A stretch of 64,000 bases of DNA from Podospora anserina (taxonomy: Eukaryota), in the NCBI GenBank assembly GCA_017654855.1, contig CM030334.1, forward strand, positions 1,798,001-1,862,000, read 5' to 3'. A program made the translations under genes and the position numbers. Within the stretch, counting starts at the first letter, position 1. Every line of letters starts with the position of its first letter. Under the pieces are notes generated by a model. That model was not told the origin of the DNA. It made no database searches and was given only the letters and a program-made list of their open reading frames with translations. Below, piece after piece: positions 27,035 to 50,422 of this stretch.

Positions 27035-29090
27035 ATTCGTTTCGCTTGTTCAGGGTGTGAGGGGTCTGATTGGTTGTATGCTGGTGTCGATTTTGTATAA
27101 TGGGAACGAATAGTTCAAGAAAGATGGGATGAGGGGGAAAGGCTTACTTGACTGACGGCATTGTCACGGTTACCCAGCTGGCTAGAGTCAGGCATGCTGG
27201 GAACCTGCTTGAGTGATGTGATGCGATAATTGAGGGGATCTTGTCTAAAACCCTGATCTCGCGCGGTGTTCATATCATCATCCACAACCTGCCCCGACTC
27301 TTCGAAACGAGCCTTTTTGCATCAGTAATTGCGCATATATGACCAAGCCGTCATCTCTCTGCGAGGAACCTCAATGACAGCAGCTGCCTGTCCTCATCCC
27401 CTCCGTGTTGATTTCTGAAGCCAGTGAGTTTGCCGAGATCCCCCGGCAGTTGCTGGCCGATTGCTTTGCGTTGAAGCTTCACAGGGACGTTCCTGACGAT
27501 AAGGAAGATATTACCGGTGAGGATTGACCCCTTGACCTCCCCTCAGCAATATCGATGATGAGCTCTGCATCCCAGATATTGAGGGGATTCGGGGTAACTG
27601 TAGGGATTGGTAAGCCTAATCTTCCCCTGTCTTCCAAGGTTGTTTGATTTGCCCGCGACTCAGGGGTCAATGTTGGGGGACGTCAAACTTCTGGATACAC
27701 CACAGAGTCGAAAGAAGATGTGATGGTGAGCGCGGATGCAGGAATGGCCAGTGTTGTGGCATTAGTTGGCTATTGGCACTTAGAAGGGTCAGCGTGGGCA
27801 TGGAGAAACCTTCGAGGAGACAAAAGGTGTGCCATCAGAGCACAGGGAACACCGCCAGTCTTCTACTGCAGTATTGGAAGGTGAGCCGCCATCAGTCAGA
27901 GGTCGATGGTATATGAAAGATACACCTTATGGGCTAGAAGATGGAGGTTGATGGTCTTGTGGAAAAAGGGGTCAAACAAGGGAAACCGTCTGCAATATCT
28001 TCTCTCTTGTCCTTTTCCTCCATCTCTCTTATCTGTTACCGCTCCGGCGCCCCACTTATTTTCTGCTGCTGGATTACTTCTCGCTGAAGTTTGCGCTCTT
28101 ATTTTCTCTTCCTCTTCCTCCCTCTGACCGCAGCGACCCGGCTGAAACTCGTGTATCGACCGACCGACCGACTTCACCCATAATATCCAACCACTTCAAC
28201 CATCACATCAGCTTCATTCCTACCTCTCTTATCAAAGATGTCGAATAACTCGCAACCTTTTCTCTTTTTTAGTTCGTGGTCATTTCCCTTGTCTGTCGTC
28301 TGACTCATCTTCCTTGCGATGGCATCGGCTTTTTCTTGAGCCGAGTTCCGGTGATGAATGGCTGATGTTTGATCTCGTTCATTACGCCAATCTGAAGTTA
28401 AGCCCCTGCTTTTTCAACAGTGTCTTATCACCGACAACTTCTTTAAACCAGGCTTCATTCGACCCCCATCTCGAGGGGGATGGCTACCGTCCTGTTAAAC
28501 TTGGCCCTTGAGGTGAAAGCTGTGGAGGATCTTCAATCAGACATGAGGGCAACTCTGACCACTTCAAGTGATTAGCTGAACGAGCGTTCCGGAACAACCA
28601 TGAGCAGATTGGTATACCGCTTCCGCACTTCCCAGTGTTCATGCTTCGCAGCCTTGACCATATGGTGGAAAGGGAGCATTCAGATGAGGGGCGTAGCTGA
28701 GAATTTCATAGCGCAGTATGTGATCATTAGCAGCTGAGGCATCGCTAGAAGATAGTTCAAAGTTGTGACTTGTGGTCTACCTAGGTGCCCAGTTGGATGT
28801 GCGACGGGAGAGATATTTATCTCCCCTGCGAGCCAGGCCGGTGGTGATTCACATCATCGGAGTCACAAGTTGTTGAGAGATAGGCGTTTACGCCATTTGC
28901 TAGTGTTCTTTAAACTGAGCACACAGACGCCCGGGCATGTTTAGGTTCAGCCTTTCAGCCACAGCGAGGTTACACAACCACAATACCTGGAAAGCATGAG
29001 TCACGTGTTATGCGCTGACCGTCTTAAGTTCGACCAGTAGGTAGGTAGTTGCGCCCCGTCAGCCTTCGACAACCCCCCCTAGCCTCAAAC

Positions 29091-30434
29091 ATGCCATCCC
29101 TCCTAAAGGCTTTCCAACTAGGCTGCGAGAGTTACATCTCCTCAGCATCATTTCGAAAGCCTACTGCCTTGCTGGCTTCTCCCTCGTTTGGAAGGTGGAA
29201 TCATGGCCACATGACAAAGCGTCATCGTACTGGTCACACAGCCGGTATGCCACAGGATGGAGACGGCCCCTTCGCTCCGGCGGGGAGAGAAAAAATACAA
29301 AGGCTTCTACAGCAAGGTTATGGGCTTTTTGATGTCTTTCGCTTGGAGGATCATATCTCGCGGCGCCCCCGAATGGTATTTGATGCTATGGTGGAAGAAG
29401 ATAAGGAGCTGGCGAGCCTGGTGCGGAAGCGGAAACGTGGGAAATGGTCGGATGAAGAGAAGGAACACCTAATCAAACTCACCAATAACCGCCGAAGAAT
29501 TGACATCGAATCCATCGCACGCCAAATCGGTCGAGGACCAGGAGCCGTTAAATACCAGTTACGGTTGATGGCAAAGGAAAAGAGTGCGGAACTGGGAAAC
29601 GACGCCGTTTCTTTCTCGGCAGCGCTTTTGGACAAAGATCTCGGAAAGGAAAAGCAATCCATCCTCGAGGCACGAATGTGCCAAATCATCGACCGACTGC
29701 TGGAGGAGGGCGACGTTACAACCCATTGGAGAACCATCTTAAGCGCCAAATCGGCAGAAGCTTGGGTGGCAACCATTCTCGCGTTAATTCCGACACCGGT
29801 GAAGCACATCTTGGCCGCCCCCAGGCCGCCCACAGCTGCAGATTGGAGGAGCTTGGCTTGGCAGGATACCAGCTTGTTCGGGGTCTATGCGTGGGTTCTC
29901 AAGCGTGGCCGGGGCTCCGGCCTTAACCCGCTTCGAGTAGAGGACTACGTCTACATTGGTTCAGCCACCAAGTATGCCCATGGATTGTCTGGGAGAGCGC
30001 TTCAGCATCGTGAGGGACGTTATTAGGAGAGCGGCCCTCGTCTCAGTGACCGGATCAAACAACGTGGCTTAAGCCGTATCACTGGACATTTTGCTACTCT
30101 CCTTGTAATGGAGCCGGCGTCTTCCGAAATTGGGGATATAACCAAAGCACGAGAGCTCGTGGTATTTGCCGAGGCAATCTTTACTATCTTGTTTGGGGCG
30201 CTCACAGAGACCGAGTCGGCTGGCGTGACTGACCGCGCGGGGCAACACCGTCGTCTCCACTCCCTGTCCCCCTGGGTTCACACGCAGCGGTTCAATTACA
30301 GGGGACTGTGTTCTCACAACCCTTTAGCTCTTGACTTGGAGCCCCGGGGAGGAATCTGCTCATCTTGCCCTATGGAAAATACTGACCCGCGTCAATCCGG
30401 GCCAGTGGCGGACTACAAAGCAACGGAGAGTTGA
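29091..30434 (+). pseudogene. Myb/SANT-like + GIY-YIG nuclease-domain gene with a single premature TAG at 30024-30026
   Basis: RKRGKWSDEEKEHLIKL..IARQIGRG (Myb-like); GVYAW..YVYIGSA..GLSGR..H; after the stop the same frame continues to VVFAEAIF and GLCSHNPL. Confidence 0.7.
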
Positions 30435-31694: not shown

Positions 31695-34600
31695 TCAAAC
31701 CGGAAAATCTCGCATTCCCAACAGCTGCACAAACTTTGCGTGCTTCTCCCTTTGTAGTGCCTTTGTGAATCCATCCGCCGGCATCTCCAACCCAGAGATG
31801 TGTTGAATACCAAATCTTCCTTCCTTCACTTGTTCACCCACCCACTTGTACCGTATATCGATACACCGGGTCCTGGCGATATTCTGAGGGTTCAGAACTG
31901 TGATTTCGGCGTTCTTACTATCGGTGTACAGCATGTATGGCCTTGGCTGTGGCACACCACAGTCTTCCAATATCTTTGACACCCACTGCAGTGAATACCC
32001 TGTAGGCGTCAGGTTGGCAAACTCTGCCTCCGTCGTACTCAGGGCGACGAAGGTCTGCTTCTTACTCTTCCACAATACTGGCCCACCAGCCACGAAGACG
32101 ACGTGGCCGCCAGTGGAATATCTCCAAGGTAAGACATCCGCGTGTGAGGCATCTGCGAATCCCACAAGCTTCATATCTTCTGCCGAGAACTCGGAGCCTC
32201 CCAGCACAATACACAGCTTCCTGGTGGCAGCCAGGTACCGGAAAAGGTGCTTCATCAACTCCAAGTGACGTGGTGAGGGCCCAGAATTGCCCCGCAAAGG
32301 CGGTTAACGGTGAAAGTAATGTCGGGCCGAGTGCCGGTAGACAGCCAGTTCAACGCACCGGTCTTCCGAATATACTCCTTCACTTCCGCGGTCATTTTCT
32401 CCCACGTAAAAGGGAGCTCCAGCTTGGCTGGCCACGGCGTAGCCACGCCGGCCATGTCTTTATAGCCGAACTTCTCGAGTAAGGCGTCGATATAGGCCAC
32501 CTGGGACAGGTAGACCTGCCTCTTCCCGCGGTTCCTCACGATATCAAAACCCAAGAACCTCTTCGGCTCGCCTAGTTTCTTGATGCCATACTTGCTCTCC
32601 AGCCCGGTGGCGATATCTTCAATGATTTTCGTCGTAGGCGCTGATATAAGTAGGTCATCCACGTACAGGACTACCAGGGCACCTGTCTCTTTGTGACGGA
32701 ACAGGCAGAGGTCTGATGAGAGGGTATCGAAGCCCAGTTCAACCATCACAGGTTTCACTGTCTCGTACCAGTAGATAGGTGACTTCCTCAGGCCGTATAA
32801 TGCCCTTTTGAGCCGGCACACCTTGCCCAGTGGCTTGCCCAAGCCATCTGGTGGTCGTACGTAGTACTGTGCGGTGTCAGGGATTTTGGCGTTGAGAAAT
32901 GCCATCTTGAAGTCGTATTGAAGGCACTCCCAGTCATTCACGGCTGTAATAGCCCAAAAGCATTTGACTGCCACGCTACTCACAACGGCGGCGTAGACGT
33001 CCTGTGTGGCCCAGGAGTCCCTGTCAAAGTTGCCACACACCACCCACCTCGCCCTGGCCTTCACCTCACCAGTTTGAAGGTCCATCTTCTCATCGTATAC
33101 CCATTTGCTCGGTAAGACGTTGTAGCCTTTCGGCGTATCCACCAGCTCGTAGACGTCCTTTTCCAACAGGCCGGCGTCCTGCTCCTTCATGGCAGGCAGC
33201 CAATACTTGTGGTAGTTCTCGAGCTTCCTCGCTTGCCGGTAGTTCCTGGGTATATGGGACTTGTTGATGGTTTGCAGAAGGTGGTCGATTTTGACCGTGG
33301 ATAGGGCGTAGGCCACTACCTCACGTAGTCGTGGGTTGTCGAGATGTACTGTGAAAAAACCTTGGTAAGGGTGTTTACCCTGCTGTAGCTTCTTGTAGAA
33401 GCCTGGTCCCTGATTTTTTGTTGTTGCTCTGCGAGGCCGCTCCTGAGCCGGCGGAGAAGCCACCGCTTCCTCCATATGGCCTGTATCAGGCTCGAAATCG
33501 TCGTCAGAGTCTTCGACCAGGCTTTCCGTGCCTGAATCCAGTAGCCTGCCATCGGCCTGGTCATCACCAGGCCCCCCCATAGCCTCACCCTCCTCCCCCC
33601 CCATCAGCCTCGCAGGGGAGGTGAGCTCTCTCATGGCAGGAGAGTCAGTGGTATAGGGCGCTTGGTCATGGTTTGGTGGGATAGGTGCCTCGGACCGTAT
33701 ATCCTCCACCTCTTCGGCGTCGAAAAAGTCTTCCACGTCTGAGGCCTCAGGTAGTGGAGGTAGTGTTGGTGACGGCGTAGCTTTCGGAGTAGGTAGAATG
33801 GTCTGCCCAGGGTCCTTGGCCTTCCCTGTTTCAACTGTTGGAGCACTCTGCTGTGGATCGGGCTCCAGTATGGTGGTAGGTTTGTCATCGAAGGTGACCT
33901 TCCTCCCCAAGGATACCGTTCTGTTGGTGACGGCATCTTCTTCTTCGGCTATAGTACTATCAGTAAAGACTGCCTCGTACTCAATATCCTTATACTTATC
34001 GTCGTCAGGCCTGTAAGAATCGCCTTCGTTGAACTTTACGGCGTTGACCTTCACGACTTTGTCAGTGACTGGGTTCCAGACCCAGTATATTTTGCCGTGT
34101 ATATCTGCGTAGCCGATAAGCTTTCCTTTCTCCGCCCTGGCGGTGAACTTATCCGAATTGGCCCGGTAGGCCGGCTTGACGTAGTAATACGCGTCGCAAA
34201 AGTACGAGCGTAGGTGCCGAATATACGGCTTCCGCTCGCCCTCGGGCATGTTGAGCCTTGTGGTATACTTCTCGTGAGCACTGATATCTCCCTCGTTGAC
34301 CCTCGAGGGCAGTAGGTTACCCACGTAAACCACAGACTGCATGACAAATGGGAACAGCTTCTCTGGCACCTTGTAGGCCAGCATGATAGCCCTGGTGCGG
34401 TTAAGCGTAGTCCTCGCGGCCCTCTCCACCTTTCCATTCATCCACGGTGAGTGAGGCACGGTCTTGAGGATGGTGATGCCCTCCTGGTCGGCCCAGGCGG
34501 CCATGCGGCTGTCGTTAAAGGTCCCAGAGCCCTGGGCAAATTCCGTACCGCCGTTAAGGCCGATGATGCTGATTTTATGCCCGGTTTGGTGCGCGATCTT

Positions 34601-35449
34601 CGTCTCGAAATCCTTGACCTTATCGAATACCTGCTTTTTCTCCACTGTGAAGTTAATCTACTTGTAGCTACTCCACATATCTACGTATTGGATAGAGTAC
34701 TTGTAACCCAGATATCTAGGGTTCTTGTGGGTGACGACGTCGATACGGATGAAGTCGAACGGGTTGTTGGTCTGCGAAGGGGTCGATGAGCCTAGTTGAT
34801 CTGTTATCTTTGCCATCACGCAGGGCTCGCAGAAAAAGTCATTGCCGACGAGCTTAATACCCGCCTGCGTACAAGCCTTGTAAATATCGTCCTTGTTGGC
34901 GTGCATTAGGCGGCGATGCATTACCCGGTAGTTGATAGATGCCATCACGGCCTTGATGGGAGTCTTCGCCAGGGATACTTTGCTGAAATCGGCGCCGGGC
35001 GTCGTATTCATCTGGTATATGTTGTTATTCCTGGTCAACTCACACACCACCTGCTTAGTACCTCTAAGGACCAGGTTGTGGCTCTCCTGGTCCCAGAAGA
35101 TACCTTCATCGAGTAGCTTGCCCGCCGATATCAGATTGACGGGCGCCTGTGGGTGGTATACCGCTTCCTTGAGCTCCAGGGTAACAGCCTGGCCACTTGA
35201 AAGGGTAGATTGCAGCGCTGCGGCACCCTGGTAGCTGCACTTTGTGATATCTCCTGACGACGAAAGGAACCTCTTTTCCTTCCCCTCAGGTAGTAAGTGG
35301 AGCTCGGTGAACCACTTCAGTTTATTGAATACGAAATCCGCGCATCCGGAGTCGTAGTACACGTGGTCTTTGAATGCCTCGACGGCCTGTTGGACTTCAG
35401 GGGCATCTACTGAGGAGAGTGCTGCCTCTGGGGGCCGAGACGAAAATCC
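31695..35449 (-). pseudogene. pol: copia pol (protease, GAG-pre-integrase, integrase, RT, RNase H), interrupted
   Basis: YYDSGC, HRRLMH..CEPC, NGKVER, KARARWVVCG, RALYGLRKSP, LYVDDLL, FADASHA, STTEAEF; stop at 34658-60, frameshift near 32290, integrase D changed to N (LNGGTEF). Confidence 0.92.
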
Positions 35450-36540
35450 GATTGGTCATCGTCATGGTAGGTGGGGAGCGATATATTGGCGAAGTTATTG
35501 GACAGCATCAGGGTACTGTGGGCAGGTCGGTCCCTCGAAGACCCAGTATTGGTGACGCCACCAGTATGGCCTTGAAGAGTCCCTGTTGACGAGCCAGTAC
35601 TCTGCCGCCTCTCTTGCCTATCCGCTTGTGCCTTTTCCCTGTGCTCCCAATCCTTTGGAGCCTTGTCAGGGTCACACCACCAACAGGCCTTGCCCTTCGG
35701 GTGGTGACGACCACAGCCCATGCAGTGCTGGTTGCCTTTCCTTAAGCCCTTGGTGCATTGGTCGCACTTCTTCGTCGAGGTTGATGATGTGGCAGGTGAG
35801 GGTGTAGTCGCGGCCGGGGCCTTGGTGGTCTCGATGGTGATTTTGGAGTGAGCCGGCGTGGTCTCCTCCGTAACGGCCTTGGCGCTATACTCCTGGCAAA
35901 GAAGCGACCAGGTCATGGTGCCGTCTTCCATCTTCCTTGCTAGCCGGTCGTACAAATCGGGGTACGCGGTCTTGATGCCGTTCAGGGCAGCCCAGAGGTG
36001 AGCCACGTGGCCGATCTTGATTTCCATCGTATCAAGACGACGGCGAAGGACCTCGAGCCGGCTGAAGTAGGCTTGGAATGAGGCGAAGTTGGCACGCTTG
36101 AGAGTGAAATACTCCTCCAAAAGCATACCAGCGATGTCGAAAGTGCCGCGCTGTAGGGCTTGGATAATCTTCTGGTATAGACCATAGGCACCAATGCCGT
36201 CGGCCTTCCAACCCAGGTTGAGAATTCGTTGTCGGATCTCGGGCTTCTTGACGGAAGCCATCATCAGGTTCTGGATGTCCAGGTTGTTAGTACGCCATTG
36301 GTCGAAGGCAGGTGTCCCTTCTTCCGCTGGTGGCTGTATATTAGCCTTGATGTAGTCCTCCAAGCCATGGTACATAAGGGACTGGGTTAACTGAAATTCC
36401 CAGCCGGAAAGATCGGTCTCTGAGTTCAGAGCCGGCAAGGCTTGAAAGGTTCGTTGCCTAACCGTAGCGACGGTGTTGGCATTCCCCATAGCTTTCACAA
36501 GCTCCAAGAGCTGGGCCATGGTGACGTTAGTGCCAGCCAT
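35407..36540 (-). CDS. gag: copia gag
   Basis: Open ORF with a Cys/His knuckle-like region (CMGCGRHHPKGKACWWC) directly upstream of pol. Confidence 0.85.
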   Translation of the reverse strand: MAGTNVTMAQLLELVKAMGNANTVATVRQRTFQALPALNSETDLSGWEFQLTQSLMYHGLEDYIKANIQPPAEEGTPAFDQWRTNNLDIQNLMMASVKKPEIRQRILNLGWKADGIGAYGLYQKIIQALQRGTFDIAGMLLEEYFTLKRANFASFQAYFSRLEVLRRRLDTMEIKIGHVAHLWAALNGIKTAYPDLYDRLARKMEDGTMTWSLLCQEYSAKAVTEETTPAHSKITIETTKAPAATTPSPATSSTSTKKCDQCTKGLRKGNQHCMGCGRHHPKGKACWWCDPDKAPKDWEHREKAQADRQERRQSTGSSTGTLQGHTGGVTNTGSSRDRPAHSTLMLSNNFANISLPTYHDDDQSDFRLGPQRQHSPQ

Positions 36541-37093
36541 CTTGAAAGAAAAACTGGTCAAAGAGAAGTCGTAAGAAAGACGCTGTGAGAAAGACGTCGA
36601 AAGAAAGACTCAAAGAAAGGCGCCACCTGACTTTGTGGCCGCCAACAGTGGGTTGAATTGACTTGGGCAGAGGGCGAGATGCTTGCTCCGCTATCGGTCT
36701 CCTGATAAGGCAGGACAGAGTTCTCGACTGCTGCCGGAAAACAGTAATTTCCCAGCCAAAAGGTCGCAAAAATGGCAGAACCAAGGAAACTTGGCCAGGA
36801 GAAGGTTGGCGCCGTAAACCACACTCTTATCGGTGAGGGGTGGTCGGTCGCTTCAACTCTTCGTCAAGATGAGGGTCAGGGTTAAAACCAGGCTTCCGTT
36901 GATTGGGAAGTTGGTTAACTCTCTCAACGCCTCCAAAATCGCCGTCGAAAGGTCCAATTGCGTGATATTGGCCTGACAAGGGTCGAAAAGTCGTAAGGTC
37001 CGGTGTGGTATTCGGCCTTGCGAGGTCGGGTTGTCGACGAGGGCGTCGACTTCGGTTTGCTTGGTGATTTAAGCGTCAAAAGAGCTCATAACC

Positions 37094-38468: not shown

Positions 38469-40289
38469 AGCTGATTGGCTGACTTTACCGAGGGGGTGAT
38501 GAGGTTCGGCGCAGTGAAGATGTTGCGGCGGATTGGGGGTTGATTCCTGACGGAAACCACTGCACCAGAGGATGTAAGATGGTGTCTTTGGGATTACCCT
38601 CGCCGCCTCGCGTTGGGAGGACGTCAACAGTGGAGCCGGATGTTGGTGGCGGATGACTAAGCACAAGGGCTTGTTCATGTTTTGTTGGTAAAGCTTGGCA
38701 GGGGAACGGTCAGGGGGGGCCGAGACTGACGAAATGAGGTTTTGATTGTTAGCATTGTGGAGTAGTGTTTGAGTTGAGGTCAATGGGATGATTGTTTATT
38801 GTATCCTCTGTAGGATGTGAATCTGCTTCGTTTTTATTGTGTTTCTTTGTGTTTTTCATGATTGGCTTGATATTTGGTATGGCGATGAATGACAACCTGG
38901 AATGCGATGAAAGGTATGGAGTCAGGCATGACTGGACTTTCTGCAGCACATGCAGATCTCTATGTATGAGCGCGGTGGTCTTGAGATGTGTTAGACCTCA
39001 AGCGATGTCTTTGGTGTGTTGCGGACCTCTCACTCAATGGGAGCGGGTGAGGGACAGGTTCTCTGGCGCATGTTGACGTCGGGTCCTCATAGGTCTGCTT
39101 AATTTTTGAATATATGTACATAGATGTAATTTGAATACCTCTCTCTATTTTCTCAGTGCTCTAGTCAAGAAGGCGTTGGATTGCATCGACGCATGGAGAT
39201 CGTGCTGAAAGTCGTGTAAGTTGACGCTCCCGTGTTGCAACTGGTCGGTCTTTCTTCTCTCTCCTGCACCAGGCGACAGAGTCGTATCTCATATTTGCAT
39301 GTCTCATAAGCTGCGATCTCAAAAGTCAACACTTGCATTTGCGATTTGCCTACTTCGCTACGACTTCCAGGATATTAGAACTACCCTGCTGAAGGCGCTG
39401 CCATTGCTGGGAATTACCCGATTACCAACAACGCCCCTATTGTCCACGGAGCTCCTAATCTTGCCAACCCATATTCTATCGGCAATGACCCCATTGTCGG
39501 CAACGATGTTGTTTCTAGCAATGTCCCTCTTCACAGCAACGCCTCATTGCTTACTGTGGATAGGGCTCGCCAAGAAAATGATGGGGAGAAAGGCAAGGAG
39601 CAAAAGGATGGGATTGACTAGGGCCACTGGATTAGCTTTAAGAGGATATAGAGCCTAAAACAGCTAACTTGTAGCTATATCAATCATCAGGGGAATAACC
39701 TTGGACGAAACAGGGTAGGTAACCTGTCCCAAAGATGCCTTAGGCACAAGAGGTATTCTGCCCTGTGGGCCTGGCAAGACGGCATGTCACTTGTTCTCAA
39801 CGATTGGTTTCAGCCAATGCTTCTACTCTTTTGTCCTCAGCAATTCTTCCTGTCCTTCTTCTCCTCTCTTCCTGGCAGGCTGCAACAAGTTGAACGAAGG
39901 CTGGAGATTCAACCCGCGATTTTGAAGCTTTTCCCTTGTCGTTGCCTCTCTAGAGTATTAGCAACGTTACATCCAGGAAGGCCTTGCCCGCATCCGACAA
40001 AAGCTTCTTTGCATATGCTAGAATACCTCCTCACTAACCTATTGACCTAAGTCTGCCCTCCCCATCCCTGCTGCGTCTGTGGCCACGCAGATAAGGCTCG
40101 CAGGTTGCCGCCCAACACTTGCATCGTCTACTGTGTAGACTCGACTGTTTCACTGGGTCATGTCGGCGATGTCTGTACATAAAGAGTGAGGCCCATCGCT
40201 CGAGATGCACGATTCCTTCTCCCAAGTCCCCACCCAGACCCGACCTCCTCCCTTCCGCACGCATCAACGCCATCCACCTAGCCAGCGTC

Positions 40290-40936
40290 ATGGGCGACCC
40301 TATCACTGTGGATCGGCTTCTGCAAGAGCATCCCATGAATCCGGCCCACAACCCAGGTACGTCACGCAGAGCGACAAGGCCTGGGCGCGGCGCTATCCCG
40401 CCATCGGGAACCTCATCGTGCACACCATCGTCGAGGAGGACAGCATCCCCGAGGAGGTCGACTCGATCTATTGCGTGAAGGATGGACAGACAAAGACGGT
40501 CCTCGCGATAGGCGAGATGAAAAGGAACCTTATCAGCACCGGCTCCTGGCAGGGGGCAACATAAACTCCATCCCAGGCCAGCAAAGGCTGTCTAAAGAAC
40601 TCCGCCGGTGGGTGTCCCCTCTGGCCTTGGAGATGAGTGACGCATGTGACTGACGGTTGGACAAAACACCTCAGGAACGCCGCCAAATATCGGTGCCCGC
40701 AGGTCTACTGCTTCGACGGTGAGACGCTCCTCCTTCTTCAGTCCCAGGCCATCAATAAAGCAGATATCGATGATGCAAACTGTCGGGTGGACTGCTGGGT
40801 GATCCCGCGCGTGAACAGCCACACTACGCTCCGCGTGGTAGATGTCTACACCGGAGCAATGAAGTGGGTGCATGAAGGGGACCCGGATTTCGCCGCGTGG
40901 GAGACCGACAGTGGCCTCTGGGAGTATCAGGGATGA
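40290..40936 (+). pseudogene. PD-(D/E)xK-like (restriction-endonuclease fold) nuclease gene, frameshifted; intron 40608-40674
   Basis: EVDSIY...VLAIGEMKRN (D..ExK), then QQRLSKELRRNAAKYRCPQVYCFDG; frameshifts near 40356 and 40556. Confidence 0.55.
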
Positions 40937-41498
40937 GTCTCATCTCCCTTCTGCTGCATCAAGGAAGACCAAAAGCGACCATTTTGGAGGCGGATAATCA
41001 GGAAAGCAAAAAGACAAGCTATTTTCCTGCAGCATACTGCTCTCTAACCCGGCTCCCGGACTCGTAAATGTCTAACGCGTGAAAAGTAGGAAGAACTATA
41101 CTTCATTGGAAGGTGAATGTGACACTACCTAATGTGCTGGATGGGGCGTTGGTGATAGCCGGCGGAGGATAGGTACAGCTGACTAGCCCCCCAAAAGAAA
41201 CAAATCCCCCTGGTAACGTTGCCTTTGTGCCATTTCATCCCAGGCAAACTTCCACGTCCTTCAAAGCTGTTGTTCTCAAGACGCTCCTGACCGAAGCTTG
41301 ATTCTCAGTTTCGGTGCCTCACGACCCATTATCCCCTCCAATATGCATACAAGACCAAAACCATCATCTTCGTCAACAACGACCCTCCAGCAGTGCCACG
41401 GCCAGGGCCGAAGCCCGGCGGCCGCGCCGTGCCCCCCCACCTCAACCTCGCCGGCCTCCCGGGTCACTAAAACCAGGACCGAATTTTCGCGTTACAAC

Positions 41499-42233
41499 AT
41501 GGCCTCCAAAGACGATTGTACGCACTTCTCCTTTTATTCCCTCTTCCTTTAAGTAACAACGAGTAAGAGGTTCCGCTTTCGGACGCGCATCCTCACCGCG
41601 ACCGCTACTCGGGTCAACCACGTGCACTCCAACGTCCTCCGTCTTCGCCTGCAGGCCAGCTTCCTGCAGTCCATTCTACTAACGGTACTTGGCTATCTAC
41701 CATGCGCAATACAGGCCTGGTTCGAGTCGCTCTTTCCCGAGTGGACTCTTCCTTCGCAGCTTATCCTCAAAAAGCAGAAGAAGAACTGGGAGGAGGAGTT
41801 TGAAGCCGAGAAAGCGGCTTACGCGAAACTGCATCCGTTACAGGGAATTATTGTTCCAAGGCTCTTTGGCGAACTCCACTACGACAACACGCCAGCGCTT
41901 CTCATGTCGTACATTGGTGGTGCATGCCTGGCTGCGCCTGAAGGGGGCATGCTGGAGCTGGACGAGTTCCGCCGCTTGGTCCGCCAGGCGCTTACCGCGC
42001 TTTCTCGCTTCGGGGTGTTGCAGGATGATGCCAAGCTGGATAACTTCCATCTGACTGACGGCAAGGTTATGGTTGTCGACCTTGAGATGATGACCAATGA
42101 AGTCCAGGAACCTCTGACGGACGAGCAGCTCAAGTTTGGCGTTGAGTGTAAGGTGGATGACCTTGCCAAAGGTTATGAAGACACCCAGTATTGCTTTTGG
42201 GAGGACGGGATTCTCTCTGTTGGTGGCGAGTGA
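41499..42233 (+). CDS. Protein-kinase-like (Kdo/WaaP/RIO-like) protein; 5' end unresolved (in-frame TAA at 41550 may be intronic or a mutation)
   Basis: LILKKQK..EFEAEKAAYAKLHPLQGIIVPRLFG, LLMSYIGG, catalytic loop GVLQDDAKLDNF, VVDLE. Confidence 0.75.
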
Positions 42234-44510
42234 ATTGTATGTCGTGCTCGTGGCGCTCATCGTGTATACGCTGCGGGTTATTGTCAACTACCGCAGCTGC
42301 TCGATGGCCGGCTGCGGCTGCGGCATTACAAGTACGGGTTTAAGTGTGAGGAGTGACGGATAATCTGGACCGATGGGATGGAAAGGAGAGGGAGATATTG
42401 CAGTCATGCCGACTTATGAAAGCCTTTGATTTGGCCTCGGATGGGTCGAGACGATGGGGTCCAAGGGCTTCTCTTTAGCTAAGTGCATTCGATTTATGAC
42501 TTTGACAGTTTCCTCGCGGCCGTATTTTTAATGTTAATCAGTTGTCATTGATTTTAACTATATATCACTTGTGGCTCTCATTGTGGGGACTGACACCTTT
42601 GCAGGCTGGAGGATGCTCTTTTTGCCTTGACCAGGGGATGTCCCTGAGGTCAACGAGACGTCCGAGCCTTCTCAGGAAAGCATCGACAAGGTTACTATGC
42701 CTCTACTTGCTCCGGAGGCCCATTTTCAACGGTTTTGCACACGGCAGACGTGTTTGGTGGCGCTTTTTATTGGGGTTGATTAAGGGGGAGAGTTCATCGT
42801 GCCCCCTAGCGTTAGCCACGCCGGACATGTAGACAGTGTATGTTTCATGTGGGATTAATGATAGTATTTACTAGGGCTTCCTTGATCCTGTTGATTATGG
42901 ACGAATCATCGCGCCTTCTATCGTATATAATATCTCTCTTGATACACACTCTGCCGGTGACGGCTATCCTCTATTTATTCCAAACTTATAAGTTGGCGAT
43001 TTCTTCGAGATGGAACAACCCTTTTTTTTTTCTTTTTTTTTTTGGTCCGGTCCTTGGAAGGCGCCAGCCTCAACAAGGGACACCACCCTGATGGAATTGA
43101 TGTACGCTGATGGCTTCATGCAAGAACACTAGATGTAGGAGAGTAGTTTCGGCCCGTATCCCGGTGTTTCAGTCCTTCTAGGGATTGTTGGGATATACAT
43201 TTCATAAATTTTTACGCTCATTTGAGACCCCTTTTCCTTTGTATCTACATGGCCAATAGGCCTCACCCATCATTTGCCCTCATATCTCTGACCCTCAATT
43301 CCTCACATGGGCTATCAAAAGAAGAGGCACTTGGGGTGAAGAAAGAGGCGGAACGAAAGTGAAAGAAGTACACGGATGCACAACAGCATATTATAGAGTA
43401 TCCAGCTGAGGCCGCCCAGGCCGCTCAGGCTGGCGAAGGTCACGCATCGGACAGGGCCGATGAATCCACAATGGAGGTGAGCTGGAGACGTGCCCCTGAG
43501 GCCAACCTGGCGCCCCGGACGGGACAAGAAGACATTCTCAGTTGGGGGGTGTGACAGAGGATGAGCTTCCAGAGCCAATGAGGACCCCTTCAGCTCATGA
43601 CAATCACGGTCAGGACAGCCAAGATCTGACCGAGGAAGATCTCGCGTTTTTGACAGGGCCCATGTTTGTTTGAGACAAGTGGTAGGAGAGGGCCAATGAG
43701 ACATAAAGGGAGCTGATTCATCTGATGACCTACACCGAAAATCCAGGACCTGACAGAGGGGGATTTGAGCTGGGTTCGACAGACCGTATATCCTGCGGGA
43801 GGAGTGGGGGAAGTTGGAATAGGCAAATGGGAGCGCTTCCTCCTTCAATTATGATTCAAACCACCCCGCTTGCTGGGAAAGCTTTGCTGCTGCTATCCCA
43901 TGCAGCGCGAGTGTTTTGCAGGGCATGTTCCCTGTTGTCCCTTCGGGTGTTGAGCATCCCAATGTAGCCTAGCCTCGTCGTCTTACAGCTCAGCGAGCAT
44001 ACACCTTTCACCTCGGAGAGCCGCCGCCCCCCCGTCTGGGGTTGAGCCGACTGTTCAGTCTCAAGTTCACCCGCGTCGGTGGCTGTTATGGGCCAAGGGC
44101 CTTGGGTGGTATAAGGTTAGGGCATGACGCCATCTAAGGGGTTTTGCTTTCCGGGTGGCTTTCCCACGGGCCGGTGCTCCGTCAAGGTTTTCATTCTTTT
44201 CCGCATGTATTTAAGGGAGTCGGCTCCCTTTCAGCGGACCTTCTTTCTTTTCCTCTCTTTGTCAGTCGATTCAACCATGTCTTACAGTTGAGTTCCCATC
44301 GATTGGACAAGCCCCGTATCAGGCGCCTCTCTACCCCTAGAGGTGCTCATACACCTGCCTTGATTCAATCAATCCCGGTGCCATCCCTGCATCAACCTAA
44401 CAAACCCTTACAATAACCGCCCTCTGCGAGGTGTCCCGCTGACTCCCGCCGCAGTCCTAGAACGGCTCCACGCCCTCCCCTCCTGGAAGAAAGAAAGAAC
44501 TCGAACTACG

Positions 44511-48691: not shown

Positions 48692-50422
48692 GGTTGGATG
48701 ACAAGGAAGTGGACCACATATGGATGTGGCCCAGGTAGGTTTGAACTACCCAAGCCATCTACCCACATTAAACCCTCCACAACCCTGGACCTCCGAAAGC
48801 CCCCCGATATCAACACACACTTTATATTCCACCCACAGAGACCAAAAATGAAGCTTTTCTTTTGCTTTTTTTTGCTCCAGGTACCCAACAATGGCCAAAT
48901 ATACCGAGGAGGATATTAAAAATGCCCAGAAAGACATTGCCGCTGGTATAAGCCAGCGAAAAGGGTCCAACAAGCACGGGATTCCACGTTCCACCCTGAA
49001 GCACCGCATTGATGGTACCCTACCAAGGAACCTTGCCCATGAAAACCAACAGCGACTTTCTCACGGCCAAGAAGACCTCATTTTTCAATGGATCCTTCGT
49101 CAGGAAAGCCTTGGCTACGCTCCCACCCATACCAATGTAAAAGCTTTAGCGGCCAGTTTACTGGCTAAACAAGGCGATCCCAACCCCCTTAGCAAGCACT
49201 GGGTATCCCACTTCATTGGCCGTTATCCTGATATTAAAACAAAGGTTGGAAAGAAAATTGACTACGCCAGAGTCAACGAAGCCACCCTGGAGAATATCAA
49301 TAAGTTCTTTAACCTGTATTCCACCGTTAACTGGATTAAGCCTAGGCACAGGTATAACCACGATGAGGTAGGTATAATGGAAGGCCAGGGAAAAAACGGC
49401 TTAGTTATTGGGTCTTCGAAGCGGGATAAGAAGTCTATATACGTTAAACAGAACGGAAGAAGGACCTGGACCACTATACTTAAGTGTATCTTATAAGACG
49501 GGAGAGTCCTCCCCCCCGGAGTTATCTTTAAAGGCAAAGACCTTCAAAAGCAATGGTTTAAGGACCAATTAAACAAGGACTGGTATATGGCTGTATCAGA
49601 GAATGGTTGGATCAGCAATAACCTTACTGTTGGTTGGCTTAAAGAGGTTTTTATACCAAGGACTGAACCTAAGGATCCATTAGAACCCCGTCTTCTTATT
49701 TATAATAGCCATGGCTCACATACTACTAATGACTTTATAATCCGGTACTACAGGAGCAACATTATGGCCCATACGTAGGCGCAAACCGCTCTTTTCAAGC
49801 CAGGTGGTAGTCCCTGTGGTGCCGTTGGATCTCTCTTCAAAAACACCTACTTTCCATACCGTGGGGGATTCCCAGGTGGCCAAGAAGGTCAGGGACCTAC
49901 TCAAGAACTATACGCCGGCCGGAAAACGGCTTGCGGCAAGGACTCTCACCAGTACTATACTCACACTGAGATCTGAGGCATCCATCCACAAAGCTGATGC
50001 GGCAAGGCACCAACAGAACGCCCAGAAGGCCCAGGAGGCAAGAAAAAGGCGCAAGTTGAATAGAGAAAACTCGAATTCCAAGTTTGTGAGGCTCTGTGAA
50101 CTGGAAGAGGCCCGCATTGAAGGGAGGGTGGTGGAGGAAGAAGTGGTAGCCAAGGAGGATGTGGAGCAGCCAGAGCCAGCCCAGCCTGTGCGGCGCAGCG
50201 CACGTCATCGGGTTCAAACCAGGCGCAAGCGAGAAGCAGATGCAATGTCTGACTCTGACAGTGATTGAGCTACATTTTGGTATAACTCCCATAGAAATTG
50301 ACCCAATATTAGTCTTGTTGTGGCCAGTGTGATCATTCAGGGGTAATCTCAACAAGGTTGTGTGGCTGGTGTGGTGGTGGTGGACCAGATCCACATGTGG
50401 TCCATTTCCTGGTCATCCAACC
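48692..50422 (+). mobile_element. Fot1/pogo-type Tc1/mariner DNA transposon, RIP-damaged with an internal deletion
   Basis: ~45-bp TIRs ggttggatgacaaggaagtggaccacat / atgtggtccatttcctggtcatccaacc; TA TSD at 48690-91 and 50423-24. Confidence 0.93.
48891..50268 (+). pseudogene. Fot1-like DDE transposase
   Basis: HTH-psq (HGIPRSTL), CENP-B-type HTH, YNHDEVG, VIFKGK, SENGW, YNSHGSH (degenerate DGHGSH); stop at 49494-96; third-Asp region missing. Confidence 0.9.

Follow-up and report, generated by a model that had tools for sequence, protein, structure and literature searches.

The 64,000-nucleotide stretch of Podospora anserina DNA analyzed here (GenBank assembly GCA_017654855.1, contig CM030334.1, positions 1,798,001 to 1,862,000 of the forward strand; called the window below, with its first letter as position 1) carries, between 40290 and 42233 on the plus strand, the remains of a gene for a nuclease of the PD-(D/E)xK family, followed by an open reading frame (ORF) with the core of a kinase. 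On balance, the locus is probably a degenerate copy of a conserved two-gene nuclease-kinase module of filamentous ascomycetes, which would act in the manner of a poison and its antidote, as in the Spok spore killers and the Crinkler proteins. It may thus be a worn-out poison-antidote element, since the pair is tightly linked in many fungi and consists of the same two parts as Spok. A first-pass annotation, made from the letters of the window alone, had already proposed a split toxin-antidote module with a decayed toxin. No paper on the nuclease-kinase pair was found within a limited literature collection.

Close linkage of the two families, the lack of which would have counted against the first-pass annotation, is a feature of many fungi. 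Their members bear consecutive locus tags in Madurella mycetomatis (MMYC01_207561, kinase, and 207562, nuclease) and in Thermocarpiscus australiensis (VTK56DRAFT_1495/1496). In Chaetomidium leptoderma the nuclease and the kinase occur on equally long contigs (84,799), as do two further pairs (10,515 and 6,593); six more pairs on equally long megabase contigs are weak evidence, and the listed members of Diplogelasinospora grovesii and Fusarium albosuccineum are found on contigs differing in length. A broader sample was obtained by scanning JGI metagenome contigs with a profile of the nuclease family, which gave 59 loci forming 36 clusters at 97% nucleotide identity or more, around which kinases were sought by tblastn with nine kinase sequences. 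In 22 of the 36 clusters the nuclease has a kinase at a distance of 11-865 bp, and no kinase match lies beyond 2.5 kb from a nuclease in the 631,622 bp of these loci. Among loci with a near-complete nuclease and at least 1.5 kb of sequence on either side, counted by eye, the kinase is present in 13 out of 14. Where the kinase is missing, in 14 clusters, the nuclease is mostly a fragment or has many stops, or else the contig is short, and a profile search for the kinase in 24 kinase-less loci gave a best E-value of 0.14.

The arrangement of the pair varies considerably among the 22 clusters: the genes are head-to-head in 11, tail-to-tail in six and in the order kinase-then-nuclease in four, while a single cluster (L023/L028) shows the nuclease-then-kinase order of the window. 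Since the pair is found in all four orientations, the adjacency has outlasted repeated rearrangement. Pairwise distances between the nucleases co-vary with those between the kinases (Mantel r 0.86 for 17 loci, with none of 5000 permutations as high), which fits inheritance as a unit. The two activities also occur within one predicted polypeptide, with the nuclease first, in two of the 267 proteins examined, namely P0160 of Colletotrichum tanaceti (CTA2_8601, 466 amino acids) and P0216 of Apiospora phragmitis (498 amino acids). A prediction of the complex between the nuclease P0063 and the kinase P0021, made by a tool that did not use the alignments, permits no verdict (score 0.10, mark 0.34). 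Two metagenome loci, L001 (3508-5311) and L002 (3474-5277), contain two tandem kinase copies upstream of one nuclease gene, of which the second switches frame in mid-gene.

The first gene of the window, at 40290-40936 (+), is a transcribed and spliced pseudogene of a fungal protein family of about 320 amino acids, recognized by tblastn against the homologues P0057-P0060 and others (307-331 amino acids); its C-terminal piece matches proteins of this size in Cercophora and Lasiosphaeria. Its reading is spread over three frames. The first piece, MGDPITVDRLLQEHPMNPAHNP, ends at a shift near 40356, and the second runs from YVTQSDKAW through EVDSIY and AIGEMKRN to SWQG, ending at a shift in the G5 run at 40552-40556. 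The third piece, GNINSIPGQQRLSKELRR, extends to an intron of 67 nucleotides (40608-40674), beyond which the last piece, NAAKYRCPQVYCFDG ... WEYQG, leads to a stop. The motifs reported by the first-pass annotation are located where it had placed them: EVDSIY and AIGEMKRN lie in the frame of 40358-40561, and its downstream motif, QRLSKELRR joined to NAAKYRCPQVYCFDG, is obtained once the intron has been removed. The intron is of the GT..AG type and follows ELRG/ELRR, the conserved intron position of the family, at which many representative matches stop (profile position 181).

The two frameshifts that had been claimed for this gene are also borne out. One base has been lost at 40353-40358, from a codon that specifies K or R in the homologues (..HNP, then K or R, then YVTQSDKAW), as seen from the frame switch in the alignment to P0057 and P0058; reading this break as a tiny intron was ruled out, as the GT..AG stretch there, of about 14 nucleotides, is far too short. 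A second base has been lost from the G5 run, as indicated by alignment to the homologues, and the shift leads to a premature TAA at 40562-40564 (feature 40552-40564). The damage nevertheless extends further than was recognized, since the tblastn alignment reveals two overlooked in-frame deletions. At the junction 40436-40447, between VHTIVEEDS and IPEEVDS, about 74 codons are gone (P0058 residues ~55-128), and with them the conserved first core helix EADCELWFHTEISN; at 40832-40837, between SHTTLR and VVDVYTG, the loss of about 59 codons (P0058 residues ~240-298) takes out the helix with the invariant Q-G-x-R-R. The copy in the window thus retains the catalytic D and E-x-K (EVDSIY ... IGEMKRN, 40457-40531), lacks two core helices, and cannot produce a full-length protein. 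A Pfam search with three nuclease pieces gave nothing meaningful, and a match to Cytochrom_D1 at 13.8 bits is due to chance.

Over 40100-42400, the window was compared with contigs from four public runs of this organism. No indel was observed in 40290-40936 relative to the contigs of runs X4, X10 and X16, and the frameshifts are therefore not assembly errors. The intron is retained in the DNA contigs of X4 and X10, while a 676-nucleotide contig of X16 joins 40138-40606 to 40674-40880 and leaves it out, and transcription thus starts at or before 40138. That X16 (and X18) consist of RNA is a guess, which the spliced contig fits, as none of the listed runs is recorded as such. Since X4 and X10 are free of indels and the X16 contig is spliced, the frameshifts are real and common to the strains, and the pseudogene continues to be transcribed and spliced. 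The comparison also revealed several differences between strains: 40234 C>G, 40834 C>T, 40867 G>A, 41034 A>G, 42150 A>G (K to E) and 42356 A>C.

The intact relatives indicate what the first gene would once have encoded. With P0057 as query, 69 relatives were retrieved, and a search of 1.84 billion proteins with a profile of 37 members gave 470 representatives at E≤1e-3, the best 150 of which all belong to the nuclease family itself. Named members come from the Sordariales, Hypocreales, Magnaporthales, Microascales and Glomerellales, from Lineolata (Dothideomycetes), and from Penicillium and Aspergillus. The residues E88, D90, E98, D132, E150 and K152 are near-invariant in the 37 members, and IGE[MFI]K appears in 35 of them. 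The AlphaFold model of the intact Madurella nuclease is confident (predicted local distance difference test, pLDDT, 94; predicted template modelling score, pTM, 0.93) and contains the alpha-beta-beta-beta-alpha-beta core of the restriction-endonuclease fold, with the catalytic D ... (D/E)-x-K and an acidic residue on the first helix, the strand placement of these residues being taken from the secondary structure of the model without superposition. In view of the structural matches and of the near-invariant E88/D90/E98, D132 and E150-x-K152, the family is assigned to the PD-(D/E)xK enzymes, with a confidently predicted fold and an apparently intact active site, in agreement with the restriction-endonuclease fold that the first-pass annotation had proposed.

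Among known enzymes, the best structural matches, over model residues ~75-250, are the restriction enzymes BpuSI, DrdV and HsdR (Types IIG, IIL and I), which share the E ... D ... E-x-K catalytic arrangement. In contrast to these enzymes, with which sequence identity is only 11-14%, the fungal proteins have no methyltransferase, helicase or specificity parts, are encoded by intron-bearing eukaryotic genes, and possess extra N-terminal (1-75) and C-terminal (250-324) elements. A Foldseek search of the Protein Data Bank (PDB) with the nuclease model gave nothing at E≤1e-3, with weak rows for DrdV, HsdR and NucC, while the VIA wide search returned a long list which includes restriction enzymes, NucC, Can2 and Cas4. 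Searches of PDB sequences with the nuclease and kinase profiles gave nothing below E 0.1. Four conserved cysteines, C-x4-C ... C-x3-C (P0063 residues 188-221), are found beside two neighbouring strands and might bind metal.

The second gene of the window contains an open frame of 226 codons at 41553-42233 (+), ending in TGA at 42231-42233, which includes LILKKQKK, EEEFEAEKAAY, DDAKLDNFH and VVDLE. The first-pass annotation had recognized the corresponding motifs (LKKQK, EKAAY, DDAKLDNF and VDLE) and had placed the kinase about 560 bp downstream of the nuclease, a distance which holds if the ATG at 41499 is taken as the start. The frame is 94% identical to QC762_305130 of Podospora pseudocomata and clusters at 90% with PODANS_3_5130 of P. 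anserina strain S mat+, both of which are annotated genes. The kinase family to which it belongs comprises proteins of about 230-280 amino acids, of which 56 match the window ORF, with K94/K97, E107, D180-x-K182-L-D-N185 and D197 invariant or nearly so; D.KLD[NK] followed by D[LF][EQK] occurs in 33 of 33 members. These positions correspond to the beta-3 lysine, the alpha-C glutamate, the D-x-K-x-x-N loop and the DFG-equivalent aspartate of kinases, and the window ORF has retained all of the catalytic residues (K, E, D-x-K-L-D-N and D).

The model of the kinase (pLDDT 84) has a bilobal kinase fold, for which Foldseek found at least 500 PDB matches at E≤1e-3. Nearly all of the matches listed are protein kinases, among them Rio2, Bud32 and WNG1, which lacks a glycine loop, and one row is RNase L. 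Relative to the Pfam APH model (PF01636, cut-off 23.2 bits), the window ORF (24.9) and P0019 (27.3) score above the cut-off, P0002 (20.8), P0006 (20.4) and P0030 (15.2) fall under it, and P0021 has no match; the weak Pfam matches of the family comprise APH, WaaY and RIO1, and its neighbours in the ESM Atlas carry APH and Kdo. Based on the catalytic residues, the kinase-like model, the borderline APH matches and the APH/Kdo neighbours, the product of the second gene is predicted to be a minimal eukaryotic-like kinase, which upholds the kinase identity suggested in the first-pass annotation. Like Rio2, Bud32, the Kdo kinase/APH group and Toxoplasma WNG1, it has a small kinase fold in which the N-lobe is reduced and an alignment inspected by eye shows no obvious glycine-rich loop. 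The family differs from these minimal kinases in its merely borderline Pfam scores (APH 15-27 bits) and in its own N-terminal motifs, PRRPPGxLKxGPxF and RFRFRTR.

The 5' part of the kinase gene is in a poorer state than the core. No in-frame ATG precedes the kinase core. In the homologues, a conserved N-terminal exon (M..IIFVDDDPP ... PRRPPGxLKPGPNF) is joined to RFRFRTR, and in the window this N-terminus aligns in two frames with 41343-41517 (+), beginning with the ATG at 41343 and now out of frame. The ancestral frame is split at a C7 run (41432-41438). Since the frame of the strain S protein P0261 continues across this run and the contigs of X4 and X10 show no indel there, this frameshift is fixed in the strains seen. 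The strain of the window has in addition a 1-bp deletion after 41348, where X10, X16 and the strain S protein carry an extra A that brings the ATG at 41343 into frame with KTKTIIFVNNDPP. The strain S frame, which is that of the codon at 41291 and is reached from the ATG at 41343 only with the extra A, contains a stop at 41468-41470. Homologues P0006 and P0019 (..ARTV joined to RFRFRTR), together with the sequence itself, point to an ancestral intron of 50 nucleotides (GTACGC ... GTAAC ... AAG) at 41518-41567 (+), connecting ..WPPKTI to RFRFRTR.

X16 has no contig over 41439-41591 from which the splice pattern could be read, and the public gene models reach the kinase core by differing and unconserved introns, which, as reconstructed, occupy 41463-41553 in strain S and 41518-41553 (36 nucleotides, from the ATG at 41499) in P. 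pseudocomata. A start at ATG 41499 combined with the conserved 50-nucleotide intron was considered and rejected, as this splice gives a TAG at once; the ATG is rescued only by the 36-nucleotide intron, as in the P. pseudocomata model. Further upstream, weak evidence for a transcribed leader at 41059-41212 (+) comes from X16 contigs at 41059-41209 and 41193-41211 (depth ~3), and a probable 5' GT..AG intron of 96 nucleotides at 41213-41308 (+) is hinted at by one X16 contig which joins 41211 to 41308, with a short side of only 19 nucleotides and a depth of 3.1. The window ORF differs from P0001 at 13 of 226 positions, among them a D to Y substitution in the near-invariant SDIGG on the side of the window and one of G to R in LQG on that of P. 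pseudocomata. The gene is read as being under relaxed constraint. The description of a dead nuclease beside a preserved kinase is thus accurate as to the nuclease and overstated as to the kinase: the latter is better kept than the former, yet it is probably not intact, because a frameshift disrupts its ancestral exon 1 in every strain seen, to which this strain adds the extra deletion at 41348. Judged from the sequence, it is possible, and on the whole doubtful, that the window gene still yields an active kinase.

The comparison with Spok shows both likenesses and differences. In SPOK3, as described in PMC6660238, the PD-(D/E)XK domain (catalytic K240) is required for killing and has a Vibrio vulnificus HsdR fragment as its top HHpred match, while resistance, including resistance in trans, depends on the kinase domain (D667) together with a Cys-His cluster; the domains extend to residue ~700, and the kinase resembles Kdo-type kinases more than eukaryotic protein kinases. 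The same source describes SpokPsi1 as lacking the killing part, a loss which its authors suggest preceded full pseudogenization, and reports that they consider a mechanistic model premature. Like SPOK1-4 and the FuSpoks of Podospora and Fusarium, the module described here combines a PD-(D/E)xK nuclease with an eukaryotic-like kinase outside the classical protein kinases, in ascomycetes. In the fused proteins P0160 and P0216 the nuclease precedes the kinase, the same HsdR structure is among the top matches of the nuclease family, and the more advanced decay of the nuclease in the window parallels SpokPsi1. In contrast, Spok is a single polypeptide composed of a coiled coil, domain 1, nuclease, Cys-His cluster and kinase, whereas here and in most relatives two genes encode proteins of ~320 and ~270 amino acids, for which the searches made here brought up no sequence match to Spok. 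The nuclease model also lacks an N-terminal coiled coil, as far as can be seen in the model, no coiled-coil predictor having been run, and the cysteine pattern C-x4-C ... C-x3-C, found in 27 of 37 members, is the nuclease family's own. A feature search of the ESM Atlas pointed to an ascomycete cluster of 341 amino acids (score 0.91, 180 of 256 features shared), 76% of whose members carry the Pfam domain SPOK2_N (PF27653; InterPro IPR052396), which is a lead and not a test. The module is accordingly not Spok in its architecture; in its parts it is Spok-like, and probably also in its logic.

A restriction-endonuclease domain coupled to a kinase is likewise a frequent architecture of Crinkler toxins (PMC5289972, PMC12693581), in which the former is held to be toxic and the latter to be its regulator (PMC5289972). 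The module shares this coupling with Crinklers such as Phytophthora CRN8; a Crinkler differs in being one polypeptide, secreted or translocated, that begins with a header domain, while the two activities are encoded here by separate genes. In Pfam searches at E≤1 or E≤10, P0057, P0058, P0062, P0063 and P0134 matched nothing, the presence of a Crinkler header model in the library being unchecked, and no signal peptide was seen by eye in the proteins of the module, for which no predictor was run.

The favoured mechanism can be outlined from these observations. The first gene would have encoded a cytoplasmic PD-(D/E)xK nuclease of ~320 amino acids, whose harmful activity would be directed at DNA, and the minimal kinase of ~250-280 amino acids encoded by the second would neutralize or gate it by phosphorylating either the nuclease or its target. 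Linkage of the two genes would be selected, since a nuclease inherited without its kinase would be costly. In the P. anserina lineage the poison would have been lost, and the kinase, having become useless, would now be drifting, as suggested by the fixed frameshift, the indel within the species and the substitutions at conserved positions. Further traits are those of selfish elements: the module is spread patchily over the Sordariomycetes and some Eurotiomycetes and Dothideomycetes, there are several copies per genome, many copies are broken, and the window offers a transposon-rich setting.

The state of the window, with its nuclease wrecked and its kinase core open, fits the "poison first" order of decay that the first-pass annotation had invoked. 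The order is nevertheless not established. At L023, the closest of the loci with the same arrangement, both genes are broken, the full-length nuclease having one frameshift and two stops, and the kinase having a stop in exon 1 and DLK in place of DLE; in addition, several decayed nucleases have no kinase in their vicinity.

A number of observations weigh against a poison-antidote system. Toxicity, rescue and drive are putative for every member of the family. At one locus (L041), neither the 1.7 kb upstream nor the 5.3 kb downstream of a complete-looking nuclease contains a kinase, even when searched with a sensitive profile. The co-variation of distances would also follow from shared descent of the species alone, and both of the fused proteins could be mergers of adjacent genes in the gene models. 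No presence/absence polymorphism was observed, the locus being found in 15 of 15 listed DNA-type runs (at least 0.93 of words), a list which consists of holders by construction. As for kinship with Spok, homology of the nuclease family is a possibility raised by the language-model lead to SPOK2_N; no Pfam match was obtained for the family at E≤10, with a library that did not contain SPOK2_N, and a loose form of the Spok Cys-His pattern, C-x3-C-x10-16-C-x4-6-H-x6-8-H, occurs in none of the 267 proteins examined, the fused forms included. The module is moreover common in the Sordariales, in which, apart from Podospora, the Spok authors report no BLAST-level Spok homologues (PMC6660238).

The module lies in a transposon-rich part of the genome, as judged from a copia retrotransposon and a Tc5-type fragment in the window. 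The former, a copia-type long terminal repeat element with long open frames at 31695-36609 (-), looks little decayed; in it, an ORF of 800 amino acids combines RVT_2 (E 2e-47) with a retroviral SH3-like domain, and upstream of this ORF lie one with a Pol beta-barrel and a gag-like one. The latter, at 48852-49496 (+), is a fragment of a pogo/Tc5-type transposase with Tc5 transposase DNA-binding and Psq helix-turn-helix domains. At 29049-30434 (+), an open frame of 325 amino acids is followed, after one stop, by a frame of 135 amino acids; neither has a Pfam match, and the stretch YVYIGSA ... GLSGR may reflect a likeness to GIY-YIG nucleases.

The pair could alternatively be a cellular, non-selfish nuclease with its regulatory kinase, serving inducible DNA-damage responses, programmed cell death, allorecognition or defence against viruses or transposons, with adjacency maintained for co-regulation and the genes simply lost in the P. 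anserina lineage, an account that we consider rather unlikely without dismissing it. The head-to-head arrangement with a spacer of 280-780 bp, the commonest one (11 of 22 clusters), would suit a shared promoter, the presence of the locus in all of the listed runs agrees with a cellular function, and the solitary nuclease of L041 suggests that the enzyme is not lethal by itself. HET-domain ORFs lie 2-7 kb from the nuclease, at varying distances, in five of 21 representative loci (L008, 5560-7773; L027, 7085-9460; L051, 17060-18541; also L003 and L050), yet such genes abound in these fungi, and this nearness may be due to chance. The patchy distribution, multiple copies and frequent pseudogenes are unusual for housekeeping genes, and a role in defence or cell death would still follow the logic of a poison with a safety device, thus partly overlapping with the poison-antidote account. 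Improbable, in our estimation, is a mobile element of which the pair would be the cargo or the machinery, the nuclease serving in transposition or homing, the kinase as an accessory, and the window copy being a dead insertion. A transposon origin of such restriction-endonuclease domains, put forward by Zhang et al. 2016 according to PMC5289972 and PMC12693581, would agree with this account, as would the copia element and the Tc5-type fragment in the window and the patchy and numerous copies; however, neither a conserved third gene nor common flanks were found around the 21 representative loci, the varying gene orientation ill suits a fixed transposon structure, and the closest intact relatives are located on megabase contigs of ordinary assemblies. 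That two unrelated, decaying genes became neighbours by accident can be given almost no weight: nearness is their sole tie within the window itself, but the synteny counts, with adjacency in 22 of 36 clusters and in the named genomes, in four orientations and in fused forms, refute a chance neighbourhood.

Within the poison-antidote reading, which thus remains the favoured one, a more specific version can be formulated, although we regard it as unlikely. The family would consist of split, possibly ancestral, Spok-type killers, forming a class of two-gene poison-antidote elements widespread among filamentous ascomycetes, whose antidote kinase acts in trans from a gene of its own; Spok would descend from a fused pair, of which Colletotrichum and Apiospora provide apparent examples; and the locus on Podospora chromosome 3 would be the fossil of a fixed driver or addiction module that decayed poison first.

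The present work thus draws attention to a conserved, hitherto unannotated nuclease-kinase pair with a probably Spok-like logic, of which the copy in the window is a relic. PODANS_3_5130 and QC762_305130, annotated in two Podospora species, are probably drifting remnants of the pair, and their unannotated neighbour is a transcribed pseudogene. In the intact members, the separate and linked genes would allow each activity to be expressed, mutated and purified alone, and would provide a direct test of the action of the kinase in trans and of its substrate. This bears on the manner in which the Spok kinase cancels the Spok nuclease, and on the origin of the Spok genes. The family would also provide many candidate selfish or cell-death modules in the Sordariomycetes, plant and human pathogens among them, where such genes are now labelled "hypothetical protein".

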